Assembly: GCA_035438745.1 (NCBI GenBank) | Contig: DAORIX010000001.1 | Coordinates: 3,075-67,074 of the forward strand | Direction of reading: 5' to 3' | From: Minisyncoccota bacterium | Lineage (GTDB): Bacteria > Patescibacteriota > Minisyncoccia > Phycocordibacterales > UBA6065 | Length of the DNA stretch: 64,000 nt | Part shown: positions 29,254 to 44,183 of the stretch, one piece after another | Position numbering within the stretch: position 1 is the first letter of the stretch | Layout of the letters: each line of letters begins with the position of its first letter | The notes under the pieces: generated by a model | Seen by the model: the letters and a program-made list of their open reading frames with translations, nothing else | Databases searched by the model: none | Told to the model about the DNA's origin: nothing | Made by a program: the position numbers and the translations under genes

Positions 29254-31455
29254 CTAAGGATTTCTGCCCGCCTCAATTTCTTTTATGTAATACTCACCTT
29301 GCTCTTTGAATGTAGGATCTTTCGCAATAACTTCTCTGATGGTAGCAACCGCACTTCTACGATCACCAGAAGCGAGAAATGTTGCTGCATACTGAAGTCT
29401 GTATTGATTGTTTGATGGGTCTGTATCTAGTCGCTTCTTCCACAAAGCAAGCGCTCGTGACCACTGTTTTGTATCAGTATACGCCCTGATGAGACGATCG
29501 TCCGTAACGAGTGTAGTGCCGTACTTTGACTCAAGCGTTTCTTCTGCTTTTTGCACGTCACCAGAATAAATTGTAGCAATAACATAGTACATAAACGCAT
29601 CTTCATTTCGCACCTCGATCTCGTACGCACGCTTAAACACCTCGAGCGCTTTCGCATAATCTTGCTTCTGCAAATAGAGATTGCCCAACTGATAGAGAAT
29701 ACTCTGTTTGTTTGGAGAAAGTTCGGATGCGCGCAGTGTGTACTTGAGAGCATCGTCAAAAAGACCGTAGTAAGAATAAAATGTTCCTGTAAAAAGCTGA
29801 TAGCGGGCATCGTCAGGAGTATGTTCAAGTTGTTTTGCGAGTTCCGCCTTACCGAGCTCAAAGAAATCCTGCTTCACATTAATCGGAGCAGTTGATGGAT
29901 TGATTTGGCTCACCGCCTCAATAATTCTCTCTCTAATTTCTGACTGACCAAGAGACTCTCTCTTGAGTGCGTCCTTGAAATCCACCACCGCAAGAGCGCC
30001 CATTTGTCCCGCATCCGTACCTAACTTTCTCAAAGCCTCAATAAGAGACCGAGATGCCGCATACGCCTTGAAGTTAACGAGATAAAGGATGACCACGAGC
30101 ATAACAACACAGGCCGGTAAAATGATTTGCTTAAAATCATCATCTCCCACTTCGGTGTCTACGCGTGAAAGTTTGTGAGAAGTTACCGCTACACGCCCGT
30201 GTATATATGCGAGCATAGTAACAAAGATCATGTAGCTCGTGAGATTGTCGAATACAAAAAAGTTATGTATGAAGTACGCAACAAAAAGTCCAGACATCAC
30301 ACTTTTTTCTGTAAATGAAAATGTTTCCTCGGAAGACTTCCACAAACTCCACAGTGCGCTACCGAACAAAAAGAGATACGCAAGGAGACCGAAAATACCT
30401 CCTGCTATAAGCCAATCAAATACAACATTGTGAGTACGATCAAACCACTGTTCCTGAGCATACATACCCGGATTGTAGTATTTGTTAAAAACATAGCTGA
30501 AATTTTCCTGACCCCATCCTAGAATCGGGCGCTCCTTGAAACCTTGCCATGCCATATCCCACACCATAAAACGCGACTTAGTAGTTCCATCATTAAGCGA
30601 GATCGAGGCAAAGCGCGAGAGAACAGGACTTTCGCGAACAAAAGAGGTATTTTTAATGGCCAAGAAACCAAGAACCGTAGCAATACCCAAGCCTAAAATA
30701 ACTCCACAACTAATACGAAGCACTTTATTTTTTCTTTCAAAAATGAGCACGAGAAGAGTCGTCACGCCTATACCCCCAATGAGACCCAAAATCGCACCTC
30801 GAGTTGCGGTGTGATAGAGAATAAATACAAAGAAAAGAGCGAGCACGCTGTATGCATAACCCCATTTCTTTTTCATATCTGTAAAAGAACGCGCCGCAAA
30901 CATTCCTGCAATAAAAATGTTGAAAATCATGTACACCGCGAGATACGTTGCATTGCCGAACGTCGCATCAACACGCACACCTCCTTGATTGATAGTGAAT
31001 TTTCCAAGAAGTTGAGCCACGCCATACAATCCAATACAGAGAGTTGTTCCGAGATATACATTGAGTAGTCGATCCCAAAGTGTTCTTGAAAGCAAAACAC
31101 ATCCAGCCACTACGAAATATACATAGAGATGAAGTATGGTGATGAACCCTTCCATACGCTCATAGTTTGACCAGAATGCCTTGAATGCATTCGGCGCAAA
31201 AGAGTCAGCAATACCAATAATGAGCACGAAGGCAGTAAACGCCCACAAAATGAGAGATTTTTTCGGGCGATACGTGACATCTCTGAGTGCGAGCGCTAAC
31301 CACGCCACGCCAATGATCTCAACAATAATTCTAAATAAAAAATTCTTTCCGGTAATAAAAGGAAAAAACAAACTTCCTGTAACTACAAAAGGAATAAAAG
31401 GAACGGTGAATAAACCGCCCAGAATTATAAAACGCAGAATTTTCTTGAGATTCAT
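29254..31455 (-). CDS. Wzy_C (O-antigen ligase/polymerase-like) polytopic membrane domain fused to C-terminal TPR repeats (paralog 2)
   Basis: About 12 TM helices with Wzy_C-like periplasmic loop (RTHNVVFDWLIAGGIFG) then a 280 aa TPR array (AIEALRKLG..., ALEVFKRAYEIEVRNEDAF...). Confidence 0.75.
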   Translation of the reverse strand: MNLKKILRFIILGGLFTVPFIPFVVTGSLFFPFITGKNFLFRIIVEIIGVAWLALALRDVTYRPKKSLILWAFTAFVLIIGIADSFAPNAFKAFWSNYERMEGFITILHLYVYFVVAGCVLLSRTLWDRLLNVYLGTTLCIGLYGVAQLLGKFTINQGGVRVDATFGNATYLAVYMIFNIFIAGMFAARSFTDMKKKWGYAYSVLALFFVFILYHTATRGAILGLIGGIGVTTLLVLIFERKNKVLRISCGVILGLGIATVLGFLAIKNTSFVRESPVLSRFASISLNDGTTKSRFMVWDMAWQGFKERPILGWGQENFSYVFNKYYNPGMYAQEQWFDRTHNVVFDWLIAGGIFGLLAYLFLFGSALWSLWKSSEETFSFTEKSVMSGLFVAYFIHNFFVFDNLTSYMIFVTMLAYIHGRVAVTSHKLSRVDTEVGDDDFKQIILPACVVMLVVILYLVNFKAYAASRSLIEALRKLGTDAGQMGALAVVDFKDALKRESLGQSEIRERIIEAVSQINPSTAPINVKQDFFELGKAELAKQLEHTPDDARYQLFTGTFYSYYGLFDDALKYTLRASELSPNKQSILYQLGNLYLQKQDYAKALEVFKRAYEIEVRNEDAFMYYVIATIYSGDVQKAEETLESKYGTTLVTDDRLIRAYTDTKQWSRALALWKKRLDTDPSNNQYRLQYAATFLASGDRRSAVATIREVIAKDPTFKEQGEYYIKEIEAGRNP

Positions 31456-31515: not shown

Positions 31516-31545
31516 CAAAAAAAACGACACCTGTTACGGTGTCGT
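31516..31545 (-). terminator. rho-independent terminator after 31557..32327
   Basis: acgacacc-tgttac-ggtgtcgt hairpin; on the minus strand it is followed by a T8 run. Confidence 0.5.
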
Positions 31546-31556
31546 CTTGAAAGCCT

Positions 31557-32327
31557 CTACGAAGAAAGCCCTAACCTAACTGCTTCTCTTTGCATGGCTG
31601 AGACGATATCTGTGCGTTGTTTGTCACGTTTGGACCTCATCGACTCATCATCCTCAATGAGTTGTTCAACTGGATGGACGTAGTCAACGATTACGGAATC
31701 GATGGCTACACCCCCTGTCAGAAACCACAAAAGTGGTATGAACAGGATTTCCCAATTATCACCATAGTGTATCGGTTGATATGCCGCCATTATCATGGCG
31801 GCCTGCCGATTCATGATCCGCGGTCCGATATAAAAATCAATATCGAACCTTTTTGTGATATTGCCAAGCTCCCAATTGGCCCTCAGTTCAGACCAATGCT
31901 GATACTGAGGATACCCATCGAGATTCCGTCGCCGTGGTATGACCACATCGGTAGCGCCCCTCATTACTCGCGCAATGCACGGACCAAGCAAGGGGACAAG
32001 CGTGTATTTTTCCGGCTCAAGCCAGACAAGTACCTCTGCTTCTGTCGCGAGACCAGCATTGAAACATTCGCGACGCGACTGTCCCATACCCGGCTTTTCC
32101 TGATCAATAACGGTTGCTCCAGTTTCCCGGAGAGCTTGTTTGAACTCTTCGCACGGACTACCGTCAATGACGATAATCGGATAATCGTTGTCTCGAGCAG
32201 TACGACACGTTTTAAGTGCCAGCTGTGCTCGGACCTCATCCACGCTTTTGATAAACGTGGTGGTTACCAACACTATTCGATCGTTCACAATTACCTTTCT
32301 TTTGATTATTTTAAGAACTAACCTCAA
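31557..32327 (-). CDS. hypothetical protein, possibly a divergent GT-A fold (GT2-like) nucleotide-sugar transferase; GC-rich relative to neighbours
   Basis: Pattern IVLVTTTF..(30)..PIIVIDGSP..ETGATVI..GMGQSRRECFNAGL..VLVWLEPE parallels the GT2 core, with EPE where DxD is expected. The minus strand is chosen over the antisense 234 aa ORF because the terminator is downstream on the minus strand. Confidence 0.3.
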   Translation of the reverse strand: MRLVLKIIKRKVIVNDRIVLVTTTFIKSVDEVRAQLALKTCRTARDNDYPIIVIDGSPCEEFKQALRETGATVIDQEKPGMGQSRRECFNAGLATEAEVLVWLEPEKYTLVPLLGPCIARVMRGATDVVIPRRRNLDGYPQYQHWSELRANWELGNITKRFDIDFYIGPRIMNRQAAMIMAAYQPIHYGDNWEILFIPLLWFLTGGVAIDSVIVDYVHPVEQLIEDDESMRSKRDKQRTDIVSAMQREAVRLGLSS

Positions 32328-32381
32328 TATATATTATACACCAAAACAACATCAAAGTCAATACGAACACAGTGACCCTTT

Positions 32382-32411
32382 TTGACACCTTTACATAATG
32401 GGGAGTATTAT
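32382..32411 (+). promoter_or_regulatory. near-consensus sigma70-type promoter (TTGACA-N18-TATTAT) driving the HTH gene and probably the long plus-strand glycan operon
   Basis: TTGACA at 32382..32387 and TATTAT at 32406..32411. The ATG at 32422 is about 10 nt downstream of the -10 box, suggesting a leaderless or near-leaderless transcript. Confidence 0.45.
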
Positions 32412-32421
32412 AAGCATTGTC

Positions 32422-32670
32422 ATGGTAGAAGAAATAAAACCCAACGCCGTCTATACGACAGAGGAAACAAGACAAGTCCTCCGTATTAGTGACAGCACCA
32501 TTAAGAGACTCCTCAAAAAAGGACTCCTGCGTGCAAACAAAGTTGGAGGACAATACAGAATCATGGGAAAAGAAATTTTACGAGTGGTCTCCCCTGATCT
32601 CGAGAAAGAAGCCGTAAAGTCATACCTCTCTCTCAAGAAAAAAGTAATAAAAAAAATAAACAAATGGTAA
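32422..32670 (+). CDS. excisionase/MerR-like helix-turn-helix DNA-binding protein (HTH_17-type)
   Basis: [38 protein letters not shown] matches the excisionase-family HTH. Stop overlaps the gmd start. An alternative start at 32398 lies inside the promoter spacer. Confidence 0.6.
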
Positions 32671-33761
32671 AATCTAATCCTATGGCCAAAAAACAAAAAA
32701 CAAAAACTAAGAAAGCTCTCATTACCGGAATTACAGGCCAAGACGGTTCTTACCTTGCTGAACTTCTCCTTGAGAAAGGTTATGAAGTCTATGGACTCAT
32801 CAGACGCGCCTCAACATTCAATACCTCTAGAATAGATCACCTTTTCCAAGATCCCCACACAAAAAACAAAAAACTCATACTCTTGTATGGAGACCTCTCT
32901 GACTCGAGCAACCTCTCGCGAATTATTGAAAAAGTAAAGCCAGATGAAATCTACAACCTAGGCGCACAAAGCCATGTCCGCGTCTCTTTTGATATGCCTG
33001 AGTACACCGCTGATGTTGATGCGGTTGGCACATTGCGACTCCTTGATGCAATACGAGAAACAGGAGTAAAAACAAAATTCTACCAAGCATCATCCTCAGA
33101 AATGTATGGAAAAGTTATGGAGGTACCTCAGACAGAAACAACCCCCTTCTACCCCCGATCACCCTATGCAGTTGCAAAAGTATTTGCTTATTGGATTACA
33201 AAAAACTACCGAGAGGCGTACAACCTATTTGCAGTAAATGGAATTCTCTTTAACCACGAATCTCCTCGTCGAGGAAAAACTTTTGTAACGAAAAAAATCA
33301 CTCGCGGACTATCGCGCATCAAGCTTGGTATTGATGAAAAGATGTATCTCGGAAATCTCGACGCGAAGCGTGACTGGGGTTACACAAAAGACTATGTATA
33401 TGGAATGTGGCTCACCCTTCAACAAAAAAAACCGGATGACTACGTACTCGCCACAGGAGAAACACATTCTGTACGAGAGTTTATAGAAGAATCTGCGAAA
33501 TGCCTCGATATCGATCTCGTCTGGAAAGGAAAAGGAGTTGATGAAAAAGGAATTGATAAGAGAACAGGAAAAACAATCATAGAGATTGACCCTGCGTATT
33601 TTCGCCCAGCTGAAGTAGACCTCCTTATTGGAGATGCATCAAAAGCCAAAAAAGAACTGGGTTGGAAACCTACCGTTGATTTTAAAGGTCTCGTAAAAAT
33701 GATGTGTGAATACGACCTTGAGGAAGAAACTCAAAACAAACAAAATCTCGCACGAAAATAA
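32664..33761 (+). CDS. gmd: GDP-mannose 4,6-dehydratase
   Basis: [33 protein letters not shown]-terminus, catalytic SSSEMYG...Y..AK, GME-unrelated long loop; start 32664 or 32682. Confidence 0.9.
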
Positions 33762-33762
33762 C

Positions 33763-34692
33763 ATGAATAAAAATTCAAAAATTTATATAGCCGGCCATTT
33801 AGGACTTGTAGGATCAGCTATTTTGAGAAAGCTCAATAAAGAAGGCTACACAAACCTCATTACAAAATCTCGTAAAGAGCTTGACCTTACTGATCAAAAA
33901 GCAGTGAAAGATTTTTTTGAAAAAACAAAGCCCGAATATGTATTTCTTGCCGCGGCAAAGGTGGGTGGAATTATGGCAAACAAAACCTACCCTGGAGAAT
34001 TTATTTCCGAAAATCTCGACATCCAAAATAATATAATAAAAAACTCCTACATCCACGGAGTAAAGAAACTGTTGTTTCTTGGAAGTTCGTGTATATACCC
34101 AAAACTAGCTACCCAGCCAATAAAGGAGGAGTATTTTATGACGGGTCCCCTTGAGCCAACAAATGAGGCGTATGCGATTGCAAAAATTGCAGGAATTTCA
34201 ATGTGCCAGTCATACCGAAAACAATATGGAGCTGATTTCATATCACTCATGCCGACAAATCTCTATGGACCGGGCGACAACTTCACGAACGAAAGAGGTC
34301 ATGTGATTCCGGCACTCATTAGAAAATTTCATGATGCAAAAGCCAAAAATCTTGACGAGATATCAGCATGGGGCACAGGATCAGCAAAACGAGAATTTTT
34401 ACACTCGGATGATTTAGCTGATGCGTGTGTGTTCCTCATGAAGAATTACTCCTCGGGAGATATTATAAACGTTGGTACAGGCGAAGACGTCACTATCAAA
34501 GAACTCACCGAAAAAATTAGCAAGATCGTTGGCTTTAAAGGAAAAATTGTCTGGGACACCACAAAACCAGACGGTGCTCCCCGAAGACTACTTGATGTAG
34601 AAAAACTTCACACCCTAGGTTGGAAACACCACATAGAACTCGAAAAAGGTCTTGAAGAAACCTATGAGTGGTTCAAAAAAAATGTCATCTAA
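33763..34692 (+). CDS. fcl: GDP-L-fucose synthase family (GDP-4-keto-6-deoxy-D-mannose 3,5-epimerase/4-reductase; Fcl/WcaG, or a ColC-type paralog)
   Basis: [19 protein letters not shown] Rossmann start, [18 protein letters not shown] blocks; start at MNKNSK (33763) abuts the gmd stop. Confidence 0.8.
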
Positions 34693-34696
34693 AAAA

Positions 34697-35911
34697 ATGA
34701 AAAAAGGTAAAAAAAATACAGCAGTACCCTACAAAGTACCCCTCATGAAAAATGCTTTTATTGAGGAAAAGAGCGTCAGGGCAAAACTCTCACAATTTGT
34801 TCTCACTGCCCCACGCCTCAGTATGGATTTACAATGCGCTCAGTTTGAAAAAACGTTCGCGAAAAAACAGGGTCGAAAATACGCGATTTTATTCAACAGC
34901 GGAGGAAGCGCAAACCTCGCAATGATACAAGCGCTCAAAAACTTAGGCGCACTCAAGGACAATGACAAAGTAGGCTTCTCTGCTGTTACCTGGTCAACAA
35001 ATGTTATGCCCATCCTACAAATGGGACTTGGTGCCGTTCCTATCGACTGTGACCCCACCACACTCAACTCAATGAGCCATTGTGCCTTACCCCGACTTGA
35101 ACAAGAAAAGTGTAAAGCCTTTTTTATAACCAACGTACTAGGTTTTTCTGGTGATCTCGATGTAATCGAAAAAGAATGTGCAAAAAAAGGAATTATAGTA
35201 CTCGAGGACAACTGTGAATCACTTGGCACCGTGCTCCATACAGGAAAGACGGGTAATTTTAGTCTTGCATCAAGTTTTTCTTTTTTTGTTGCCCACCATA
35301 TGTCAACAATTGAAGGAGGCATGGTGTGTACAGACGATCACGATTTTGCAGAAATGCTCAAAATAGTTCGAGCTAATGGTTGGGATAGAAATCTCCACCC
35401 AAAGAGACAAAAACACTGGCGCAAGAAACATGAAGTAGAATCTTCTTTTCACGCAAAATACACTTTTTATGACCTCGGCTTTAACTTACGTCCTACTGAA
35501 ATAACTGGTTTTATTGGACTCAATCAACTTCCCCACCTCGATAAAACTATCAAAATTCGTGAAAAGAATTTCAAAAAAATATACGCACAAATATTAAAAA
35601 ATGATGATTTTCTAAAAATCTCACACGATCACCTCAAAACCATTTCTGCTTTTGCAATACCTTTCATATGTAAAACACCGGAGCTCAGAAAAAAATATAT
35701 CAAAATATTCAACGATGCAGGAGTTGAGATTAGACCAATGATTGCTGGAAATATGCAAAAGCAACCATTCTCGAAAAAATACACGTCAAAAACATTTGAT
35801 CTTCCTGGTGCTGATGTATTGCACGACAATGCTTTTTATTGTGGAAATTGTCCCGACTACACGCCTGCGGAGATAGAAATCATTTTAAATTGTATAATAA
35901 AAGGAAAATAA
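34697..35911 (+). CDS. DegT/DnrJ/EryC1-family PLP enzyme with His replacing the Schiff-base Lys: ColD/E1-like sugar 3-dehydratase candidate
   Basis: Fold-type I aminotransferase blocks (FEKTFA..KYAILFNSGGSANL, GDLD..IVLEDNCESLG). Where the family has SFxxxK....GEGG the sequence reads SFFVAHHMSTIEGG. Confidence 0.6.
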   Translation: MKKGKKNTAVPYKVPLMKNAFIEEKSVRAKLSQFVLTAPRLSMDLQCAQFEKTFAKKQGRKYAILFNSGGSANLAMIQALKNLGALKDNDKVGFSAVTWSTNVMPILQMGLGAVPIDCDPTTLNSMSHCALPRLEQEKCKAFFITNVLGFSGDLDVIEKECAKKGIIVLEDNCESLGTVLHTGKTGNFSLASSFSFFVAHHMSTIEGGMVCTDDHDFAEMLKIVRANGWDRNLHPKRQKHWRKKHEVESSFHAKYTFYDLGFNLRPTEITGFIGLNQLPHLDKTIKIREKNFKKIYAQILKNDDFLKISHDHLKTISAFAIPFICKTPELRKKYIKIFNDAGVEIRPMIAGNMQKQPFSKKYTSKTFDLPGADVLHDNAFYCGNCPDYTPAEIEIILNCIIKGK

Positions 35912-35912
35912 T

Positions 35913-36737
35913 ATGGAAACTCCCGTAACAATACTCCGCCCAAAAAAAACCATCACCCTAAACGACCTCAAAGAACTCTGGCGCTACCGTGAGCTTCTTT
36001 ATTTTTTTACATGGCGCGATCTCAAAGTTCGATATAAACAAACCCTTATTGGTGCACTGTGGGCTATACTTCAACCTCTCGTTACGATGGTCATCTTTAC
36101 TGTATTTTTTGGTAAGTTGGCACAAATGCCATCTGACGGAGTTCCGTATCCAATCTTTGTTTACGTCGGTCTCCTTTTCTGGCAATTTTTTTCGAGCGCT
36201 CTCTCAGAAACATCTAATGTTCTTATTTCAAACCAAGCAATCATAACCAAAGTTTACTTTCCTCGCCTCATCTTGCCGTTATCGTCAGTACTTACCAAAT
36301 TTGTTGATTTTGCAATTGCATCTCTCATCCTTATTGGAATGATGGTCTATTACGGATATACGCCCCACCTTCTAGGGATTTTCATCATTCCTCTCCTTCT
36401 CCTCATTACCTTCATGGCTGCTGTTGGTAGTGGTCTATGTTTAGCATCAGTAAACGTTAAGTACCGAGATGTTAGATATGCTCTGCCCTTTTTTATACAA
36501 ATACTCCTTTTCCTTACCCCAGTTATTTATCCCGCATCAATTGCAGGCAACTATTCATGGCTCCTGGCGCTTAATCCAATGACGGGGGTAATTCAATCTG
36601 CTCGAGCGGCTCTCCTCGGAACAACACCAATCAACTGGCTCCTTCTCGCTATTTCATCCTTGGCGTGTTTGTGTCTTCTTATTATTGGTGGTATCTATTT
36701 CAAAAAAATAGAACGCTATTTTGCAGATATTTTATAA
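35913..36737 (+). CDS. wzm: ABC-2 type polysaccharide export permease (Wzm/TagG/KpsM family)
   Basis: 274 aa, 6 TM, N-terminal RELLYFFTWRDLKVRYKQTLIGALWAILQP signature of Wzm permeases. Confidence 0.8.
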   Translation: METPVTILRPKKTITLNDLKELWRYRELLYFFTWRDLKVRYKQTLIGALWAILQPLVTMVIFTVFFGKLAQMPSDGVPYPIFVYVGLLFWQFFSSALSETSNVLISNQAIITKVYFPRLILPLSSVLTKFVDFAIASLILIGMMVYYGYTPHLLGIFIIPLLLLITFMAAVGSGLCLASVNVKYRDVRYALPFFIQILLFLTPVIYPASIAGNYSWLLALNPMTGVIQSARAALLGTTPINWLLLAISSLACLCLLIIGGIYFKKIERYFADIL

Positions 36738-36741
36738 AAAA

Positions 36742-38001
36742 ATGGAACCCATAATTGAAGTAAAAAATGTCGGTAAAAAATACAACATAAAGCACTACCA
36801 AGGTGGCTATGTTGCGTTGCGTGATGTGATCATGAATATAGTCAAAAACCCTTTTCGCTTTGCAAAAGAAAAAGCAAAAGCAGTCACAGGAATAGGAACA
36901 AAGGAAGAGTTCTGGGCGCTCAAAGAAGCAAGCTTTAACATTTTCCAAGGAGAAGTGGTTGGAATCATCGGAAGAAATGGGGCCGGAAAATCAACTCTCC
37001 TCAAAATACTGACTGGCATTACACCTCCTACAACAGGAGAAATAAAAATGCGCGGTAGAGTCGCTTCCCTTCTTGAAGTCGGTACGGGGTTCCATCCAGA
37101 ACTTACTGGCCGAGAAAACATATTCCTCAACGGTGCAATTCTCGGAATGAAAAAAAGTGAAATCGCAAAAAACTTTGACTCGATTGTTGCGTTTGCTGAA
37201 ATAGAAAAATTCCTCGATACCCCAGTAAAATACTACTCAAGTGGAATGTATGTCCGTCTCGCCTTTTCAGTAGCCGCGCACATGGAACCAGACATACTCC
37301 TCGTGGATGAAGTACTCGCTGTGGGTGATGCAGAATTCCAAAAAAAGTGCCTTGGAAAAATGGAAGAGGTTACCAAGAAACAAGGCCGTACCATACTCTT
37401 TGTGAGTCACAACATGGCAGCAATTCAAAATCTCTGTAAAAAATGCATCCTCTTAGAAAAAGGAAAAATCAAAGCGGTTGGTGACACAGAAGACATTGTA
37501 AACCTCTACCTCCACAATTCCGAGTCAGAGGCAACAGAAAAAAAATGGGAGGGAGACAAGCGTCCAGGAAATGATGTTGTACGACTAAACCATGTTCGTC
37601 TTGTTGATGAAAATAAAGAAACCACGAGCTTTGTCTACTCAAATAAAAAATTTGGATTAGAAATATCCTACGAGGTTCTCAAATCTGGTTTTGCACCTCT
37701 TCCCAATGTTCACTTTTTCACAAATAAAGGGGAATATGCATTTATTAGCCACGCTGACGTAAAAGAAGAAAATGATAAAGTAGGAAAACACACGAAAACT
37801 GTGTGGGTCCCCGGAAATCTCCTTAATGAAGGTACCTACTCAATCGGTGTTGCTCTTTCAACTATGATTCCGCTCAACATACACCTCTATGAAAGAGAGC
37901 TTATTGTGTTCCAAGTGCTTGAGGATATTCACAGTGCAAAGAAACACGACTTCAATGTGCGTATACCGGGAGTTGTCCGCCCTCGACTAGTATGGGAATA
38001 A
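36742..38001 (+). CDS. wzt: polysaccharide ABC exporter ATP-binding protein with C-terminal carbohydrate-binding (Wzt_C-like) domain
   Basis: Walker A GRNGAGKST, signature YSSGM, Walker B LLVDEVLAVGD; an extra about 170 aa beta-rich C-terminal domain as in Wzt. Confidence 0.8.
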   Translation: MEPIIEVKNVGKKYNIKHYQGGYVALRDVIMNIVKNPFRFAKEKAKAVTGIGTKEEFWALKEASFNIFQGEVVGIIGRNGAGKSTLLKILTGITPPTTGEIKMRGRVASLLEVGTGFHPELTGRENIFLNGAILGMKKSEIAKNFDSIVAFAEIEKFLDTPVKYYSSGMYVRLAFSVAAHMEPDILLVDEVLAVGDAEFQKKCLGKMEEVTKKQGRTILFVSHNMAAIQNLCKKCILLEKGKIKAVGDTEDIVNLYLHNSESEATEKKWEGDKRPGNDVVRLNHVRLVDENKETTSFVYSNKKFGLEISYEVLKSGFAPLPNVHFFTNKGEYAFISHADVKEENDKVGKHTKTVWVPGNLLNEGTYSIGVALSTMIPLNIHLYERELIVFQVLEDIHSAKKHDFNVRIPGVVRPRLVWE

Positions 38002-38010
38002 CAAAAATCA

Positions 38011-38667
38011 ATGCTCAAAAAAATATACTATTCGATAAGAAACAAGATCCTAAAATATAAAATGGGATCTTACCCTGTGTGGAATATCTACGAGGGGCAC
38101 TTTAAAACGACGTACCGTTCTATACCGATGTTAAAATGCCCTTTTGACTATGTTATGTATCAAATGATTGTGTCAAAGATACAACCAGATCTCATTATTG
38201 AAATCGGAACAAACGTGGGAGGAACAACCTTATACCTGGCTGACATCCTCAACACCCTTGGCAAAGGAGAGATCCACACAATAGATATCGATGATCGAGT
38301 TAATCCCCTAGCACGATCTCATCCACGCATAAAATGCTTTAACGGCGGATGGAAAAACTACGATCTTTCAAATACAAAAAAATTCTCAAAGATACTCGTC
38401 ATTGATGATGCGTCGCATCAATTTAAAGACACATTAGAAGCAATGGAGAAGTTTTCGAACGTCGTGTCTATTGATTCTTATTTAATCATAGAGGACGGTA
38501 TTGTTACTCAACTCAAAAGAGACAAACAACTTGATGGAGGACCTCTTCGGGCAATAGAAAAATTTCTTGAAACAAACAACAACTTCCTCGTTGATGACTC
38601 TTACTGCAATATGTTTGGTAAAAACGCAACCTTCAACACGAAAGGTTACCTAAAAAGAGTTAAATAA
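38011..38667 (+). CDS. CmcI-family (cephalosporin hydroxylase-like) SAM-dependent sugar O-methyltransferase
   Basis: LIIEIGTNVGGTTLYLADIL SAM-binding block and overall CmcI/rhamnosyl-O-MT layout. Confidence 0.7.
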   Translation: MLKKIYYSIRNKILKYKMGSYPVWNIYEGHFKTTYRSIPMLKCPFDYVMYQMIVSKIQPDLIIEIGTNVGGTTLYLADILNTLGKGEIHTIDIDDRVNPLARSHPRIKCFNGGWKNYDLSNTKKFSKILVIDDASHQFKDTLEAMEKFSNVVSIDSYLIIEDGIVTQLKRDKQLDGGPLRAIEKFLETNNNFLVDDSYCNMFGKNATFNTKGYLKRVK

Positions 38668-38668
38668 A

Positions 38669-39538
38669 ATGGCCAAAGTTTTTATCGGTATGCCTGTATA
38701 TAATGGTGAGCACTTCCTAAAAGAAGCCCTCGACTCTCTGTGTTCGCAGACATATTCTAATTGGAATATGCATATCTCTGATGATGGTTCCACCGACTCT
38801 ACCGAAGCGATTTGTCGCCTCTATGTAGAAAAAGACAAACGTATAACCTACTACCGCCAGCCAAAAAATATCGGTATGTTTGAGAATTTTAAATACACCC
38901 TAGAGAAATCAAACTCGGAATATTTTATGTGGGCAGCCCAAGATGATCTCTGGGAAAAAACATTTCTTGAAACATGCGTCTCGATTCTCGACAATGATAC
39001 TCGCGTTGGACTTGCCGGAACCACAATCGCTGAAATAGACTCTTATGGAAGAACCGCTCGTGAACTACTCTCACTGGAAAAACTTTCTGGTAAACCAAGT
39101 GTAAAAACAATTACCCACTACGTTCTCGAACCAGAAATACTTGGAAGGTGTAACATTATGTATGGCCTCTGGAGAACCGCCGCCATAAAAGAAACATGGA
39201 AAGCGTATCCCCAACGATCTGTCTGGGGACAGGACTACATGTTTGTACTGGCAGGTATTTCGCGTTTTGGCGTAAAGATTGATAACAAGACACTATTCAA
39301 AAAAAGACTTGGTGGATACTCGAGTCCCGATGCGACAAAAAATGACGCGCCCGGAGAGACACAAAAACGTACCATTACCAACCCCAAAGACTATATTTTC
39401 CCCCTTGGAAGGTTTAATGTTTACTTTAAGGGCCACATGGAAGCGTTACGAGGTACGCCCTATCAACCTCTCGCTGCAGTACTCTTATTAGCAAGGCTCC
39501 CTCGGGCATTATGGAATCATTTTAAACAAACACCATGA
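38669..39538 (+). CDS. family 2 glycosyltransferase
   Basis: IGMPVYNGEHFLKEALDSLCSQTY..ISDDGSTD GT-A N-terminus and DxD region. Confidence 0.8.
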   Translation: MAKVFIGMPVYNGEHFLKEALDSLCSQTYSNWNMHISDDGSTDSTEAICRLYVEKDKRITYYRQPKNIGMFENFKYTLEKSNSEYFMWAAQDDLWEKTFLETCVSILDNDTRVGLAGTTIAEIDSYGRTARELLSLEKLSGKPSVKTITHYVLEPEILGRCNIMYGLWRTAAIKETWKAYPQRSVWGQDYMFVLAGISRFGVKIDNKTLFKKRLGGYSSPDATKNDAPGETQKRTITNPKDYIFPLGRFNVYFKGHMEALRGTPYQPLAAVLLLARLPRALWNHFKQTP

Positions 39539-40419
39539 TCATCGTAAAACTTTCAGGCGGTTTAGGAAATCAACTCTTTCAATATGCCTTCGCACGTGCT
39601 GTATCAAAAAAACTCAATACAGATTTTAAGCTTGATGCGACACCTTTTGAGACGTACTACAAACTCCACAAATATGCACTCAATCACTTTAATCTTACTG
39701 AAAAATTAGCGAAAAGAAGCGATATGTTTGGTTTTGTTTGGATACGAGAACGTCACAAATTTTTTGACACTTTTTATAGATACCTCCGACTCAAAAGCAA
39801 ACTTATGCCTTTTTACTATCCTGAGCAACGATTTGATTTTGATCCCAATGTGTTTAAAAAAGACAACATGTACTTTGACGGCTTTTGGCAAACAGAAAAA
39901 TATTTCAAAAATATCGAGAACGAACTCAAAGAAGAAATGACTCTCAAAAAGCCACTTTCTCCGTATAGTCAGTCTGTACTCGATCAAATACAAAAAACCA
40001 ATGCTGTTTGCCTCCACATACGACGTGGCGACTATGTCACCAATGCAAGCACGAACGCAGTTCACGGTACCTGTTCACTTGAATACTACGAACGCGCCAT
40101 CAAATACATATCCGAGAAAGTAGACTCTCCTCATTTTTTTATATTCTCAGATGATTATCCTTGGGCGGTAGAGAATTTTAAAAATCGACCCTACCCTGTT
40201 ACGTGTATTTCAAATGGTGCTGACAAAAACTACGAAGACCTGACTTTAATGTCTCACTGTAAACACTTCATCATCGCCAATTCAAGCTTTAGTTGGTGGG
40301 GTGCATGGCTTTCAAGAAACACAGACAAAATTGTAATTGGTCCAAAAGAGTGGTTTAAAAGCAAAAAAACAACGGTCAGCACTGATGACGTGATTCCTTC
40401 CTCGTGGATAAAAATGTAA
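39535..40419 (+). CDS. GT11 alpha-1,2-fucosyltransferase family protein
   Basis: GT11 motif I GGLGNQLFQYAFARA and motif II HIRRGDY, plus the C-terminal NSSFSWWGAWL block. Confidence 0.8.
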   Translation: MIIVKLSGGLGNQLFQYAFARAVSKKLNTDFKLDATPFETYYKLHKYALNHFNLTEKLAKRSDMFGFVWIRERHKFFDTFYRYLRLKSKLMPFYYPEQRFDFDPNVFKKDNMYFDGFWQTEKYFKNIENELKEEMTLKKPLSPYSQSVLDQIQKTNAVCLHIRRGDYVTNASTNAVHGTCSLEYYERAIKYISEKVDSPHFFIFSDDYPWAVENFKNRPYPVTCISNGADKNYEDLTLMSHCKHFIIANSSFSWWGAWLSRNTDKIVIGPKEWFKSKKTTVSTDDVIPSSWIKM

Positions 40420-40423
40420 ACAT

Positions 40424-42175
40424 ATGTGTGGAATACTCGCTATAACAGGGAAAAATACAAAAAAAATCGAGGATACAACTATCTCGAGCATGCTTTCTAC
40501 TCTCTCAAAACGAGGTCCTGATGAAAGTAGTTTCGAAAGAATAGGTCCTACGGTTCTTGGCCAAACAAGACTTGCTATCGTTGATCTCTCCGGTGGGCAC
40601 CAACCCATGCGTGACAACAAAGACAATCTTACACTCGTATTTAACGGTGAAATATATGGATATAAAGAAACTCGTGAAATCCTAGAGAAACGAGGTCATG
40701 TATTCTCAACTCACTCTGACACCGAAGTTATTCTCAAGGCATATTCAGAGTATGGAAAAGACTGTGTACTTCATCTCGATGGTATGTTTGCTTTTGCATT
40801 ATGGGACGAAACAAAACAAGAGCTTTTCGTGGCACGCGATCGTTTTGGCAAAAAACCCCTGTACTACACCTCTGTCGACCAGACCTTTTTTGCCGCTTCT
40901 GAAATAAAAACACTCTTTGCGACAGGGATTATTAAAGGAGAAATCGATCCTTCTGCACTCGATGACTATTTGCGTCTTATGTACATCCCTTCATACAAAA
41001 GTATCTATAAAAACATCGGGGTACTTCCCCCTGCACATGCGGGTATTGTTAAAAACGGCGCACTTGAAACATGGCAATACTGGAAATTAGAAAAAGCACC
41101 GTGTGAGGACTCCTACGAAGAAGCTAAAACAAAAATAAAAAAACTATTCAGTGATGCAGTAAAAAAAAGAATGGTCGCCGATGTTGAAGTTGGCTCACTC
41201 CTCTCAGGTGGAGTTGATTCGACAATCGTAACCCACGAGGCGCAAAAATACATGAATCGACCTATAAAAACTTTTGCGGTCGGGTACGGCACACACAAAA
41301 ACGAGCTCCCTTTTGCGAAAATTGCATCAGAAAAAATAGGCAGTGACCACTACACCCTCACTACTGAAGATTTTAATATGGAAGGTTTCCTTGAGGTTGT
41401 TGCGTACTTTGACGAACCCCATGCTGACTCATCGAACTACCCGCAGTCCTTTGTTTCAAAACTCGCTTCTTCAAAAGTGAAAGTCGCGCTTTCCGGTGAT
41501 GGCGCGGATGAATTTTTTATGGGTTATGGTTGGTACCAAAAGTACTGGCACACCCCTCTCCTTAAAAAAATATTCACCACTCCTTGGAGATCCTATACAG
41601 ACGTGATCGAAGTCTTCAAAACAAAAGACAGAAAAGGGCTTCTTGGTGCACAGAAAAACAACAAGGCTTTTGAAAAAAACGCTCTCAAAAACGCAAAAAA
41701 CAACACCGAAAAAATAAATGATTTTGACATACACATATACCTTCCTGGACAGCTACTATCAAAAGTAGACCGAACAAGCATGATGCACTCCTTGGAAATC
41801 AGATCCCCTTTTCTAGATACAAAACTTGCAGAATATGTCTACAATCTCCCTACTGCTTTTAAAATATCTAAAAATGCAAATAAAATAATACTCAAAGACA
41901 TCCTGTCTGAAACCTTTCCGAAAGATTTTGTTTACAGAAGGAAACAAGGCTTTGGTGCACCGATAGGAGCATGGCTCTCAAAAGAAGATCTACAAAAAAA
42001 ACTTGCCGAGATATTTAGTAACCAAAAACACCCGATGTTTAGTTATATAAAGTACGACAAAGCCTTACAAATCAAAGAAAAGGCTTTTCAGAATATGAAA
42101 ACATATGCCCCTCGATTGTGGTCATTGTTTTGTCTCGCTCTGTGGTTCGAACAACATCACAAACACCATGAATAA
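40424..42175 (+). CDS. asparagine synthase (glutamine-hydrolysing)-like amidotransferase
   Basis: N-terminal MCGI Ntn-glutaminase nucleophile; PP-loop SGGVDS in the synthetase domain; 583 aa. Confidence 0.8.
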   Translation: MCGILAITGKNTKKIEDTTISSMLSTLSKRGPDESSFERIGPTVLGQTRLAIVDLSGGHQPMRDNKDNLTLVFNGEIYGYKETREILEKRGHVFSTHSDTEVILKAYSEYGKDCVLHLDGMFAFALWDETKQELFVARDRFGKKPLYYTSVDQTFFAASEIKTLFATGIIKGEIDPSALDDYLRLMYIPSYKSIYKNIGVLPPAHAGIVKNGALETWQYWKLEKAPCEDSYEEAKTKIKKLFSDAVKKRMVADVEVGSLLSGGVDSTIVTHEAQKYMNRPIKTFAVGYGTHKNELPFAKIASEKIGSDHYTLTTEDFNMEGFLEVVAYFDEPHADSSNYPQSFVSKLASSKVKVALSGDGADEFFMGYGWYQKYWHTPLLKKIFTTPWRSYTDVIEVFKTKDRKGLLGAQKNNKAFEKNALKNAKNNTEKINDFDIHIYLPGQLLSKVDRTSMMHSLEIRSPFLDTKLAEYVYNLPTAFKISKNANKIILKDILSETFPKDFVYRRKQGFGAPIGAWLSKEDLQKKLAEIFSNQKHPMFSYIKYDKALQIKEKAFQNMKTYAPRLWSLFCLALWFEQHHKHHE

Positions 42176-43319
42176 ACTCACGTCGTACTACTGGGCATAT
42201 AGGAACAAGGTATCCAACAAAGTTTTTGGAAGAGCTTTTTTGCCAGCACAAGGTCAAAAAAAAGGAAGTGTCCTCCTGTCTTACCTAACGGAACCTTTCA
42301 CACATACACCCAAAGAAGGTTTTTCCAATCTACACACATCAGATTTTGAATGCTTTGAGATCGCAAGATTGTTCACGGCGCGAGGATATGATGTTGACAT
42401 CATACACTTTAGCGACACCTCTTTTGTCCCACAAAAACCATATAACGTATGTGTTGATATACACCAAAACCTCGCGAGAATTTCAAATCTGCTTCCAAAA
42501 GACTGTAAAAAAGTTCTCCATATTGTTGGGTCGTTTTGGAAATTTCAAAACAATGCCGAACTCCAAAGATTAGAAAATCTTGAAAAAAGAAAAGGGGTTA
42601 GACTACAGCCCAAAAGAACATCCCCTCCATCAAACAACCTAGAGTACGCGGACTTCATAGAAGGTTTTGGTAATAAACAGGTTCGTGATACATACAAACA
42701 CTCGAACAAGCCCATATTCCACATACCCATATCTGCAGTACAGACTTTTGATTTTCCTGAAAACAAAAATTGGGAAAATGCAAAGAAACACTTCCTTTGG
42801 TTTGGAGGCGGAGGTGCAGTACACAAAGGTCTCGATATGGTTCTGGAAGCTTTCGCAAGTACGCCAGAATTACATCTCCACATATGCGGACCACTGTTGG
42901 CAGAAAAAGACTTTATCGAGGTGTACAAAAAAGAACTTTTTGAAACTCCAAATATAAAAATATACGGGAGAATTGACCCTACAACTGCGGAATTTAAAAA
43001 CATTGCAGACATGTGCGCATCGACCATTCACCTATCGTCATCAGAAGGAACATCGGGTGCAGTAATCCAAGCAATGCACGCGGGACTCGTACCCATCATC
43101 ACTCCCGAAACAGGAATCGATCCTGACGCGGGAGGTATTATACTTGAAAACCCCACGCCCGAACTCATCAAAAAAACAATTACAGAATTTTCTCTGTCCC
43201 CTACTCAAGAGATAGAATCCCTGGCTCGTAAAGCCTGGAACTTTGTAGCGCAAAACCACACCCGAGAGAATTTTAGCAAAAAATATAGTGAGTTTATCGA
43301 TACAATCCTAAAACTATAA
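42168..43319 (+). CDS. GT4 (Glycos_transf_1 type) glycosyltransferase
   Basis: C-terminal retaining-GT-B donor domain (FLWFGGGGAVHKGLDMVLEAF..., E..G..IQAMHAG). Start at MNKLTSYYW (42168) overlaps the asnB-like stop. Confidence 0.7.
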   Translation: MNKLTSYYWAYRNKVSNKVFGRAFLPAQGQKKGSVLLSYLTEPFTHTPKEGFSNLHTSDFECFEIARLFTARGYDVDIIHFSDTSFVPQKPYNVCVDIHQNLARISNLLPKDCKKVLHIVGSFWKFQNNAELQRLENLEKRKGVRLQPKRTSPPSNNLEYADFIEGFGNKQVRDTYKHSNKPIFHIPISAVQTFDFPENKNWENAKKHFLWFGGGGAVHKGLDMVLEAFASTPELHLHICGPLLAEKDFIEVYKKELFETPNIKIYGRIDPTTAEFKNIADMCASTIHLSSSEGTSGAVIQAMHAGLVPIITPETGIDPDAGGIILENPTPELIKKTITEFSLSPTQEIESLARKAWNFVAQNHTRENFSKKYSEFIDTILKL

Positions 43320-43324
43320 TACCC

Positions 43325-44173
43325 ATGGAAAAGCCTCTCATCTCAGTCATTATTCCGGCTCATAATTCCGCGTCAACAATACAGGACGCTCTTTTCTCAA
43401 TGACGCATCAAACGTACAAAAATATTGAGATTTTGGTTATTGATGACATGAGTACCGACAATACACAGAGTATTGTCCAGAAACTTTCAGAATCTGACCC
43501 GAGAATACACTACTACAAACTTCCACACGATGACCCGGAGAGAATTAACAAGAGAGGCAGAAATATCAATGCTGGGTACATGGCTCGTAACTATGGTTTT
43601 GAAAAAGCACAAGGCGACTATATAACTTTTCAAGATGCAGACGACGCCTCCTTTAATAATCGTATAGAAGTACAATATGACCTACTCACAAAACACAACG
43701 CCACCCACGTTGTTCTCGATTGGCAAAAATTTGATGTAAGCCTTCTCAACAAAAAATTTGACGCTCGTACTTTTTTAGAAAACAACCCTCACATACTTAC
43801 ACCCCAAGAGCTCGAAAAACTTGCGAAGAAAACACGAGGTCTCATCCACTTGTTTCCAAAGATATCCAAAAAAATTGATTTTGAAAAAAAACGTATAAAA
43901 ATTATTAATAAACTATTCTTTCGCTCACTACAACCCTACCCAGGAACAGGAAACTCTCCCCTGTTTAAACGTGAGGTGATGGGAACCGTTCAATTCCGAA
44001 AGCTTGCTGAAAGGATATGGCCATCATTTACAGGACGAGGTGCTGACCGGGATTTCAATTTTCAAGTAGCACTTACTTTTAAAAATAGCTACGTATTTAA
44101 ATTACCTTTATACTTATGGAGATCAGAGCAACAAAACCCTGACTACAAAAACGTAAGCACCTACATACTCTAA
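43325..44173 (+). CDS. family 2 glycosyltransferase
   Basis: ISVIIPAHNSASTIQDALFSMTHQTY..VIDDMSTD, QDADD DxD motif. Confidence 0.75.
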   Translation: MEKPLISVIIPAHNSASTIQDALFSMTHQTYKNIEILVIDDMSTDNTQSIVQKLSESDPRIHYYKLPHDDPERINKRGRNINAGYMARNYGFEKAQGDYITFQDADDASFNNRIEVQYDLLTKHNATHVVLDWQKFDVSLLNKKFDARTFLENNPHILTPQELEKLAKKTRGLIHLFPKISKKIDFEKKRIKIINKLFFRSLQPYPGTGNSPLFKREVMGTVQFRKLAERIWPSFTGRGADRDFNFQVALTFKNSYVFKLPLYLWRSEQQNPDYKNVSTYIL

Positions 44174-44183
44174 ATCAAAAAAC

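Follow-up and report, generated by a model that had tools for sequence, protein, structure and literature searches.

We found that a small gene encoding an 82-amino-acid winged-helix protein (henceforth the HTH protein) heads a surface-glycan operon in the 64,000-nucleotide stretch of Minisyncoccota genome analysed here (the window). The gene is transcribed from a near-consensus, leaderless-type promoter in front of a cluster of ~15.5 kb, and its product is the obvious candidate for the regulator of that cluster. The window is assigned to a genome of Candidatus Paceibacterota (Patescibacteria/CPR). The HTH family is best explained as the vertically inherited first gene of surface-glycan operons in Paceibacteria and related CPR classes. 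Our overall account, which we regard as reasonably probable, is that the HTH protein would act as an autoregulator of glycan operons on phased direct repeats, and that the GC-rich gene on the opposite strand would encode an independent transferase.

The winged-helix gene, its promoter and the glycan operon

The HTH gene occupies 32422..32670 on the + strand, an assignment drawn from domain matches, homolog alignment and an AF2 model. Its product matches the HTH_17 profile PF12728 (score 37.9 bits, cut-off 27) and the profile of excisionase-family DNA-binding proteins, TIGR01764 (33.4 against 28.8), so the excisionase-type HTH domain described in an earlier note on this DNA is confirmed. The MerR profile PF00376 remained below threshold (12.3 bits versus 28.2), and sequence and profile searches of the PDB with the HTH protein gave no significant match. 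The AF2 model, which is of only moderate confidence (pLDDT 82.8, pTM 0.54), comprises a strand, the HTH, a two-strand wing and a long, amphipathic and basic C-terminal helix (residues 58-81), which ends in an invariant Trp, the last residue of the protein. The predicted fold is a winged helix-turn-helix of the Xis/MerR type; it resembles Xis, TnrA, MerR and BldC, with a phage Xis as the top structural hit. The protein has a net charge of +11 and consists of the winged-helix domain plus this one helix, with no further or effector domain; a MerR-type C-terminal effector-binding region is absent from the model.

The promoter reported in the earlier note, TTGACA-N18-TATTAT, is present on the + strand, with TTGACA at 32382-32387 and TATTAT at 32406-32411, and matches the consensus at 11 of 12 positions. 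Only two 11/12 matches occur in the interval 32300..48300, this one and a divergent TTGACT-17-TATAAT. The predicted transcription start is at ~32416-32420, which is 2-6 nt 5' of the ATG at 32422. The claim that transcription starts a few nucleotides before the ATG thus holds for the 82-aa form and not for the 90-aa form (ATG 32398) that had been proposed. The longer form is wrong: the -10 hexamer falls 3' of ATG 32398, inside the 90-aa frame, and more than 2,700 homologs contradict it, nearly all of which are 82 aa long with a start equivalent to ATG 32422. Initiation driven by a Shine-Dalgarno (SD) sequence was also rejected: GGGGAG lies 16 nt 5' of the ATG and is itself 5' of the -10 box, and the genome as a whole is SD-poor. 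The gap between the -10 box and the ATG is 10 nt in the window versus 6-8 nt in most relatives. Because the -10 box ends 6-8 nt 5' of the ATG in most loci (46 out of 76), the sequences imply that the HTH mRNA is leaderless or nearly so.

Pfam matches and ORF order define a co-directional glycan operon that extends from gmd onwards over 32664..47932 on the + strand. Its genes are, in order, gmd, fcl, a DegT-type aminotransferase, Wzm, Wzt with a Wzt_C domain, a CmcI-like methyltransferase, GT2 and GT11, followed by an AsnB-like protein, GT4, GT2, GT4, GT2 and two further ORFs (46207-47932). No promoter match of ≥10/12 was detected on the + strand inside the operon. As the earlier note had stated, gmd (PF16363, E 6e-155) comes immediately after the HTH ORF, and it starts at either 32664 or 32682, the second ATG being 11 nt past the HTH stop. 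The overlap between this stop and the first gmd start (ATGGTAA) does not serve as evidence of translational coupling. We rejected it as designed coupling since it is a by-product of the invariant Lys-Trp-stop ending of the HTH gene (AAA TGG TAA). On the other side of the locus, domain matches and synteny identify a membrane protein of the Wzy_C (O-antigen-ligase) type with C-terminal TPR repeats (733 aa; 29254..31455, - strand). This gene is a conserved neighbour that anchors the locus beside murB and secA.

Family conservation and the direct TTGACAC repeats

The HTH ORF, whose lack of conservation in relatives would have told against the earlier note, is extremely conserved. The mean column identity across the >2,700 homologs is 77%, and in the alignment conservation runs through to the final residue. 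The gene is carried by at least 418 species genomes of Patescibacteria, a count that comprises contigs with Patescibacteria-type records or the same CPR synteny, some of them labelled as other phyla and apparently mis-assigned. In the same genome pairs, identity is 73-89% for the HTH protein, 67-73% for SecA and 38-52% for MurB. The arrangement SecA-MurB-Wzy_C/TPR followed by a divergent HTH-glycan operon was found in at least 25 of 80 species loci. In essentially all of the 74 species loci in which the first gene 3' of HTH was recorded, it functions in surface-glycan synthesis or export: 24 are fused ABC exporters, 21 GMD or epimerases, 13 Wzm, nine Wzx and four CapD-like, and the rest are glycosyltransferases and similar proteins. 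Genes 5' of HTH are mostly glycan genes as well, and the glycan gene content downstream is hypervariable between species. Literature searches that combined Patescibacteria/CPR with excisionase/HTH_17 proteins, promoters, leaderless genes and glycan regulators returned nothing on this family.

These observations bear on the proposal in the earlier note that the HTH gene is an acquired gene of mobile-element type. According to this proposal, the protein would be an excisionase (recombination directionality factor) or another leftover of a mobile element, and the glycan island would have arrived with that element or be mobilised by it. The matches to two excisionase-family models, the phage Xis as closest structure and the hypervariable downstream cargo are in keeping with such an origin. 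However, the gene recurs in one chromosomal position beside Wzy_C/TPR-MurB-SecA, is more conserved than SecA in the same genomes, is spread over hundreds of species genomes and is missing from 2.9 million IMG/VR viral contigs. Neither an integrase or recombinase adjacent to HTH nor an att-site context was found in any examined locus, where HTH lies among SecA, MurB, Wzy_C/TPR and glycan genes. We regard the mobile-element reading as already largely refuted and very improbable.

The HTH promoters carry two to three direct TTGACAC repeats (2-5 across the species loci) that overlap the -35 element. The family repeat unit is TTGACACCTT, i.e. TTGACAC(C)TT, with a length of 10 bp, and the consensus triple repeat is TGATACCnnTTGACACCTTTTGACAC. 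We searched for the consensus doublet TTGACACnnnTTGACAC with at most one mismatch on both strands of 777 kb (79 loci) and obtained 96 matches, 84 of which lie ≤120 nt 5' of an HTH ATG on the same strand (66 of the 79 loci). Among 96 pairs of adjacent repeats, 88 have a spacing of exactly 10 bp, one helical turn. The distance from a repeat to the -10 box is 16-18 nt in 50 cases, 6-8 nt in 37 and 26-28 nt in 25; one repeat coincides with the -35 hexamer, and a second copy occupies the spacer in some loci and the -45 region in others. Conservation extends to a third, degenerate repeat and to the C and T positions at the flanks, although none of these entered the selection criteria. The TTGACA core is also the sigma-70 -35 consensus, and conservation of the repeats could partly reflect promoter strength rather than an operator.

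The local element, recognized by family-wide conservation, reads GTGACCC-ttt-TTGACAC (32372..32388, + strand; period 10 bp), and its second copy is the -35 hexamer. The array in the window is weak: it has two mismatches to the consensus doublet, consists of one exact repeat plus GTGACCC, and has a spacer empty of repeats. The earlier note had suggested inverted repeats as binding sites near the HTH promoter; there are none in 32250-32480, where the repeats present are direct. Scans for the doublet or for single TTGACAC units in the rest of the 64-kb window gave counts at or below chance, so that the window holds no second repeat site.

The motif also occurs ahead of other genes. We found 125 exact occurrences of the 17-mer in metagenomes, and an HTH homolog follows in 54 of these. 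About 14 further sites, on low-GC CPR-like contigs that themselves have no established link to an HTH-encoding genome, precede other glycan genes (DegT, CapD-like, PAPS-synthase fusions, HisF-like, epimerases and GT-A proteins). At locus L030, a second repeat site lies ahead of wzm in one cluster with HTH. The recurrence of the repeats before other glycan operons suggests a regulon. Given its conserved place in front of glycan genes and behind phased TTGACAC repeats, the HTH protein is probably a dedicated glycan regulator of Patescibacteria.

The divergent GC-rich GT-A gene

The gene upstream of HTH on the - strand encodes a soluble GT-A glycosyltransferase-like protein of 243 aa (31557..32288), delimited by its GTG start, family alignments and an AF2 model. 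The earlier note used the longest ORF, which starts at TTG 32327; the likely start is GTG 32288. A promoter-like site on the same strand (TTGACT-17-TATAAT, 32333..32361, 11/12) implies a 5' UTR of ~38 nt, and AAAGG lies 6 nt 5' of the GTG. The gene has its own intrinsic terminator, as had been claimed, at 31548..31521 of the - strand (11-bp stem, 6-nt loop and T-run). The description as GC-rich also stands: its GC content is 0.477-0.491 versus 0.413 for the window, which places it in the top 0.3% of equal-sized windows, and its GC3 is the highest among 47 ORFs.

The AF2 model is very confident (pLDDT 96.9) and predicts a Rossmann-like GT-A fold closest to Dol-P-Man synthase, in agreement with the earlier note, for which the absence of such a fold would have been fatal. 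The protein is 9-16% identical in sequence to solved structures, and PDB sequence and profile searches with the GT-A protein gave no significant match. The GT2 profile PF00535 does not match the protein of the window and matches 18 of 46 relatives weakly (best E 2.9e-5). Neither the model nor the sequence contains transmembrane or interface helices; residues ~180-200, the sole hydrophobic stretch, form a helix and a strand of the protein core in the model, and the C-terminal helix is charged. Family alignments reveal the motifs VTTTF, VVDGSP (D42), GMGxSRR, WLEPEK (E91/E93/K94), PRR (R120), D151xxxGPR, HPxEQ and KRDxQ, in which D42, E91, E93, K94, R120 and D151 show no or almost no variation. 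The end of beta-4, where a DxD would be expected, holds the invariant E91-P92-E93-K94. Because hhalign of the family profile against a bona fide GT2 protein of the window gave no usable alignment, the predicted equivalence of E-P-E and DxD is based on topology, namely its position at the end of beta-4, and on a partial HMM alignment to 6p61. We found no literature on the ExE motif.

The earlier note called this GT-A core degenerate and joined the gene with HTH into one module. The E-P-E was correctly placed at the DxD position, but E91, E93 and K94 are conserved throughout the family and represent a variant motif, not decay. Gene context does not support a module: besides the window, the GT-A gene adjoins HTH in only four of 80 species loci (L022, L038, L090 and L091), with a distant homolog ~3 kb upstream of HTH in L060, and in one strain of the same species an internal part of the gene is missing (L005 and L022). 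That deletion, a GC content 7-17 points above the flanks in all genomes examined, a variable genomic context and a patchy distribution would also fit a recent foreign acquisition or a pseudo-enzyme in decay whose active site has degenerated. We consider this rather unlikely. Homologs are only 41-64% identical, so the transfers are not recent. The family, with 512 clusters at E≤1e-30, is large, has no member in viral contigs and keeps D42, E91, E93, K94, R120 and D151 unchanged or almost so, and its fold is predicted with high confidence. The gene is best explained as an independent monocistronic gene outside the regulatory module. Its product is probably catalytically active as a metal-dependent sugar transferase, with an accessory role in glycan synthesis.

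Proposed regulation, alternatives and known systems

Under the autoregulator account, the HTH protein would bind the TTGACAC repeats head-to-tail as a cooperative multimer, by analogy with BldC and Xis, and the bound multimer would control the access of RNA polymerase to the protein's own promoter. The most likely outcome would be negative autoregulation, through which the expression of the entire glycan operon behind this promoter would be held at a set level; other glycan operons with the same repeats may have their expression level set by the HTH protein in the same manner. We infer both the binding and the sign of regulation from the sequences and from these analogies. Activation from spacer sites is possible for MerR-like proteins, and BldC performs both activation and repression.

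The repeats could instead be mere promoter architecture, stacked -35-like hexamers or UP-like elements of a strong constitutive promoter, in which case the HTH protein would act elsewhere. It might belong to the nucleoid-associated proteins, it might join RNA polymerase as a factor that long leaderless glycan transcripts require (with a function like that of RfaH/UpxY), or it might use its invariant C-terminal helix to pair with a protein of glycan assembly. We consider this possible, though doubtful. The repeat core is indeed the sigma-70 -35 consensus, with one copy at a distance of 16-18 nt from the -10 box. The protein itself is very basic, its conservation surpasses that of SecA, and all of its 82 residues down to the terminal Trp are conserved, beyond the usual needs of DNA binding. 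Sigma binding, however, leaves the 10-bp phasing, the conservation of C7, C8 and T9 and the spacer copy unexplained. Moreover, the doublet is confined to promoters of HTH and other glycan genes, with no other in 64 kb of genome, and winged-helix proteins of this class bind direct repeats sequence-specifically. A MerR-style activator that remodels the promoter to switch the glycan operon on upon a signal appears still less likely. Structural matches to MerR-family DNA-binding domains and TnrA/GlnR, a C-terminal helix that could dimerise or take a protein signal (cf. TnrA) and a repeat within the spacer in 37 loci are compatible with it. MerR promoters, however, have spacers of 19-20 nt with a palindromic operator, whereas the spacers of the HTH family are 16-18 nt, already optimal, and the sites are direct repeats. 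The protein of 82 aa has no effector-binding domain and scores under the threshold of the MerR Pfam model.

The autoregulator account can be extended to a lineage-wide master switch of surface-glycan expression in Patescibacteria, an extension that we consider speculative and rather improbable. The HTH protein would then bind a -35-mimicking operator in competition with sigma region 4, and its C-terminal helix would take a signal from the glycan assembly/export machinery or from RNA polymerase. If true, a regulator with housekeeping-level conservation would be coupled to hypervariable glycan cargo and, through this cargo, to the ways in which ultra-small episymbionts attach to hosts and evade phages. 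Surface glycans of Patescibacteria are leading candidates for roles in recognizing hosts and resisting phages, and to our knowledge almost nothing is known about transcriptional regulation in these mostly uncultivated bacteria. The HTH loci provide a defined pair of protein and DNA motif, i.e. an 82-aa HTH protein and 10-bp-phased TTGACAC repeats on the -35 element, together with a leaderless start. The pair marks glycan operons in hundreds of species, and offers both an entry to CPR regulons and promoters and a marker for finding hypervariable glycan loci. The divergent gene adds a large soluble GT-A family without a Pfam model, in which an ExE(K) motif replaces DxD. As the reading as an acquired mobile module is wrong, the locus should not be mis-filed as a genomic island.

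We compared both proteins to known systems. The GT-A protein shares the nucleotide-binding Asp after beta-2 (VVDGSP) and an acidic motif at the end of beta-4 with the GT2 polyprenyl-phosphate enzymes (Dol-P-Man synthase 5mlz, ArnC and GtrB) and with GpgS, MGS and MpgS, which are soluble retaining GT-A enzymes. GT2 families carry a D..G.FR motif, which the D-x3-G-x-R element of the protein resembles. It differs from Dol-P-Man synthase, ArnC and GtrB in having E-P-E-K for DxD, and from polyprenyl-phosphate GT2 enzymes in lacking both membrane-associated helices (transmembrane or interface) and a Pfam GT2 match. Polysaccharide operons with regulators at the head of the locus are known from UpxY/UpxZ of Bacteroides and from RfaH with ops/JUMPstart; UpxY and RfaH are NusG-family antiterminators that act on RNA polymerase and on RNA or DNA pause signals. 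The HTH loci likewise have a conserved small regulatory gene or element 5' of long, hypervariable surface-polysaccharide operons, but the HTH protein is a predicted winged-helix DNA binder with promoter-overlapping repeats and is unrelated to UpxY and RfaH in sequence and fold.

The excisionases and related factors (lambda, Pukovnik and Tn916 Xis, TorI and AlpA) share with the HTH protein the above-threshold HTH_17/TIGR01764 match, and they bind phased direct repeats, a mode that is putative for the HTH protein. In contrast to them, it has no integrase partner, att sites or mobile-element context, and it occupies a conserved chromosomal position under purifying selection stronger than that on SecA. 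The closest parallel in the proposed mode of action is BldC of Streptomyces, a 68-aa MerR-like winged-helix regulator that binds a variable number of 9-bp direct repeats head-to-tail (PMC5859096). The HTH protein is larger (82 aa) and has an additional, invariant amphipathic C-terminal helix; the repeats at its loci are 10 bp long and coincide with the -35 hexamer, whereas those of BldC are 9 bp long (AATTnnnnC). Unlike BldC, it is restricted to Patescibacteria and dedicated to glycan operons, of which it is the first, leaderless gene, and its binding to the repeats is putative. Like BldC, it is a small winged-helix protein without an effector domain, and its candidate sites, judged by the presence of the repeats, consist of a variable number (2-5) of directly repeated units, each roughly one helical turn long.

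Start codons and promoters of the two divergent genes

An 82-aa HTH_17 winged-helix protein (hereafter HTH; 32422-32670, forward strand), paired with a candidate operator of TTGACAC repeats, stands at the head of glycan operons in a large share of the Patescibacteria. We found no published description of this undescribed but well-defined pair in the literature searched. The contig of the window is one of Candidatus Paceibacterota (Patescibacteria/CPR), the name under which identical proteins are on record. The interval 31557-32670 holds two divergent genes separated by a gap of 133 bp (32289-32421), the second being a GC-rich glycosyltransferase-like gene on the reverse strand (GT-A gene, 31557-32288). 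An earlier note had read HTH as a 90-aa protein from ATG 32398 (forward strand). This form cannot be produced from the forward-strand promoter because the -10 hexamer (TATTAT) lies 3' of that codon, 10 nt 5' of a second ATG (32422) within the same ORF that yields the 82-aa protein. Almost all of the >2,700 homologs in databases are 82 aa long and align from the methionine at ATG 32422, and the in-frame sequence 5' of it shows no conservation between species. Likewise, the longest ORF of the GT-A gene starts at TTG 32327 (256 aa, reverse strand), the frame adopted earlier, whereas public annotation and the family alignment begin at GTG 32288 (MNDRIVLVTTTF...; 243 aa).

The HTH promoter claimed earlier, TTGACA(32382)-N18-TATTAT(32406-32411) on the forward strand, was recovered in a consensus scan with an 11/12 match to the sigma-70-type consensus. 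The GT-A gene promoter (TTGACT-17-TATAAT, 32361..32333, reverse strand) matches equally well, and these are the only two 11/12 matches in the 16 kb 32300-48300. The proposed leaderless start stands for the 82-aa form, 10 nt past the -10 box, and fails for the 90-aa form; GGGGAG (32400-32405) lies 5' of the -10 box, 16 nt from ATG 32422. In several first genes of the window a -10-like hexamer precedes the start codon by 6-9 nt (e.g. 24546-25502, 28164-29177 and 16774-18219, all reverse strand). Because Shine-Dalgarno sequences are also nearly absent genome-wide, the HTH gene may be no special case, and leaderless starts may be widespread in this organism. The GT-A gene has a promoter of its own and, as described earlier, a clean terminator (31548..31521, reverse strand), and is monocistronic. 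An antisense ORF (31617-32321, forward strand, 234 aa) spans almost all of it and is most likely a by-product of high GC (few stop codons), not a gene. With the two start codons corrected, the earlier observation was largely right.

A conserved core gene heading variable glycan operons

HTH scores over threshold with both PF12728 (HTH_17) and TIGR01764. Its reading frame is conserved in relatives: across 34 aligned homologs drawn from different CPR lineages, mean column identity is 77% and invariant residues extend from Glu4 to the C-terminal Trp82. HTH turned up in 418 genomes when one genome per GTDB species was scanned. The ones inspected either have titles of the Patescibacteria type (Paceibacteria, Falkow-, Buchanan-, Komeili-, Taylor-, Zambryskii-, Kaiser- and Wolfebacteria) or share the CPR synteny, and a few titles name other phyla. 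Public records give the titles 'uncultured Gammaproteobacteria' or 'Thermodesulfobacteriota' to several HTH-bearing contigs (L037, L041, L047 and others, and P0085) despite their typical CPR synteny; the bins were probably mislabelled.

In the same genome pairs, HTH is 73-89% identical, SecA 67-73%, MurB 38-52% and the adjacent Wzy_C/TPR protein 36-47%. The order SecA-MurB-Wzy_C/TPR-HTH is shared by at least 25 of the 80 species loci, no integrase lies beside HTH in any locus examined, and IMG/VR viral contigs contain no member of the family. HTH is a conserved core gene, and the mobile-element origin proposed for it does not hold. Ordinary chromosomal content elsewhere in the window, an RNase P RNA (bacterial class A, 13228-13584, reverse strand, 116 bits) and two tRNA genes (5746-5818 and 6180-6251, both reverse strand), supports a chromosomal and not an island context.

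The placement of a regulator at the operon head was borne out: in 74 species loci HTH always heads glycan genes, while the cargo varies. The first gene 3' of HTH, beginning a median of ~10 nt past its stop, encodes a fused ABC exporter (24 loci), a GDP-mannose dehydratase or epimerase (21), Wzm (ABC-2 permease; 13), a Wzx flippase (9) or a CapD-like dehydratase (4), with glycosyltransferases, NeuB, AsnB-like proteins and others making up the remainder. Upstream neighbours are mostly glycan genes too (Capsule_synth, Wzy_C/TPR, GT1, Bac_transf). The window operon is co-directional to ~47932 and contains gmd, fcl, a DegT aminotransferase, Wzm, Wzt with a Wzt_C domain, a CmcI-like methyltransferase, a GT11 enzyme, several GT2 and GT4 enzymes and an AsnB-like protein; the consensus scan found no strong internal forward-strand promoter in it.

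Translational coupling to gmd had also been proposed. The close spacing is real, but the overlap of the HTH stop and gmd start (AAATGGTAA) is produced by the invariant Lys-Trp-stop codons and occurs in 19 of 74 loci, about the frequency allowed by the downstream frame; a designed overlap is not supported by these sequences. A second candidate gmd ATG lies 11 nt past the HTH stop. The Wzy_C protein (29254-31455, reverse strand; C-terminal TPR repeats) is conserved: counterparts 725-780 aa long lie in the same position, after murB and next to the glycan genes, in L011, L014 and 20 or more other loci. This O-antigen ligase or PglL-type protein is a candidate ligase/oligosaccharyltransferase for the glycans of the variable operon.

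An accessory GT-A gene with a conserved E-P-E-K motif

The 243-aa GT-A protein has no Pfam match and no confident transmembrane segment. Its family is large all the same: a word-indexed search found 77 close homologs, and in an exhaustive profile search the count of 50%-identity clusters was 512 at E<=1e-30 and 1,836 at E<=1e-3, with lengths nearly always ~245 aa. Strand 4 ends, at the usual DxD place, in W-L-E-P-E-K; in members as distant as 30% identity, E93 does not vary and E91 and K94 hardly do, and D42, R120, D151 and Q224 are likewise invariant. The GT-A fold with E-P-E noted earlier is upheld, but judging from this alignment E-P-E-K would be a conserved variant of the catalytic motif, not a degenerate one.

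The gene occupies the same slot in L014, L091, L038 and L090. In L016 it is flanked by glycan operons, in L018 it neighbours NeuB and a KdsC-like gene, in L020 its surroundings are unrelated, and L011 lacks it. In the GTDB representative genome of the window's species (GCA_964559755.1), an internal deletion removes residues 37-142, the catalytic core (L005 5353-5610, L022 5356-5867), with HTH and the operon intact. The GT-A gene is therefore an accessory enzyme outside the HTH module. The earlier interpretation was half right: a regulator at the operon head and a GT-A fold with E-P-E, yes; one acquired mobile module of both genes, no.

The GC excess is genuine and family-wide (GC 0.49-0.62 in the gene vs 0.34-0.56 in its flanks; GC3 up to 0.74). 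It was seen in the window gene (31557-32288), which has the highest GC3 among 47 ORFs, and in L014 5001-5744, L016 5001-5762 (GC 0.51, GC3 0.61 vs flanks 0.335), L018 5001-5780, L038 274-1005 and L090 2723-3454. Recent transfer does not account for it, as homologs are only 41-64% identical.

TTGACAC repeats and a candidate mode of control

Cross-species alignment of the 60 nt 5' of the HTH ATG revealed tandem TTGACAC(C)TT repeats. Over both strands of 777 kb, the doublet TTGACACnnnTTGACAC (<=1 mismatch) has 96 matches. Most matches (84 of 96; 66 of 79 loci) lie within 120 nt 5' of an HTH ATG on the same strand, and nearly all others slightly farther 5'. The step from one repeat to the next is exactly 10 bp in 88 of 96 adjacent pairs, with two copies in 46 loci, three in 19 and up to five in others. 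A copy 16-18 nt from the -10 box (50 cases) serves as the -35 element; copies also lie in the spacer, 6-8 nt from the box (37 cases), or at 26-28 nt, ~-45 (25 cases). In 46 of 76 loci, 6, 7 or 8 nt separate the end of the -10 box from the HTH ATG, which puts the predicted transcription start on or beside the A of ATG and implies a leaderless mRNA. The consensus of 68 species, Tga.aCc..TTGACACCTtTTGACACtTt, also carries information in a degenerate upstream copy and in the C and T after each core, all unused in selection. The window has a weaker form, GTGACCC-ttt-TTGACAC (32372-32388, forward strand), with the exact copy as -35 element and none in the spacer. The rule of a leaderless first gene has exceptions: in L056 (4644-6250) the doublet precedes a 405-aa gene and HTH is second, and in L029, L063, L077, L082 and L083 repeats lie 125-480 nt 5' of HTH.

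As a motif-first control, we used the exact 17-mer TTGACACCTTTTGACAC as a query against metagenome contigs (at least 125 occurrences in at least 120 loci). Among the 125 matches listed, 54 are followed by an HTH homolog within 700 nt; in 25 of these 54 the first codon is 31-41 nt from the motif start, and in the rest 48 to 571 nt. About 14 more listed matches lie on low-GC CPR-like contigs ahead of a different gene, whose ATG comes 6-7 nt after a third repeat (TTGACACCTTTTGACACtttttGATACCAT); the contig stretches examined contain no HTH gene. Every annotated gene among them has a link to glycans: DegT, two CapD-like dehydratases, two HisF-like proteins, a methyltransferase, two pyruvate-kinase-barrel/ATP-sulfurylase/APS-kinase fusions, two epimerases and three GT-A-like proteins. 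In L030, an HTH-bearing genome, a second doublet lies 3.4 kb 3' in the same cluster, followed by a -10-like box and the wzm ATG 20 nt past the doublet. The HTH-linked and non-HTH sites together indicate that the repeats mark glycan-operon promoters, the HTH gene's own included. The large fusions (L108 3328-6060, L148 2592-5003; pyruvate-kinase barrel, PUA-like, ATP sulfurylase and APS kinase) lie directly 3' of the triple repeat on CPR-like contigs, which suggests that PAPS supply for sulfated glycans is under the same control. All other listed matches fall on unrelated contigs of high GC. On the high-GC non-CPR contigs L141 (1590-1626, reverse strand; four exact 17-mer matches 10 bp apart, at least five copies), L144, L180 and L212, the TTGACACC(TTT) repeats form longer arrays that look iteron-like and are unrelated to the HTH family.

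By analogy with BldC, HTH probably binds these repeats and would multimerise on them. They could instead be stacked promoter elements, as the copies at -35 would allow, with HTH acting elsewhere. If HTH does bind, we consider repression somewhat likelier than other outcomes, and favour autorepression that would set operon output over MerR-style activation, because the repeats coincide with the -35 and spacer, or with -45, of a near-consensus promoter whose spacer is already optimal. The excisionase reading, in keeping with the earlier view of HTH as a mobile-element protein, is contradicted by the missing adjacent integrase and the absence from IMG/VR. The parallel drawn on here, BldC, is a 68-aa MerR-like protein that binds a variable number of 9-bp direct repeats head-to-tail, distorting the DNA (PMC5859096). 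Both proteins are small and associated with direct repeats, of 9 bp for the 68-aa BldC and, as candidates, of 10 bp for the 82-aa HTH.
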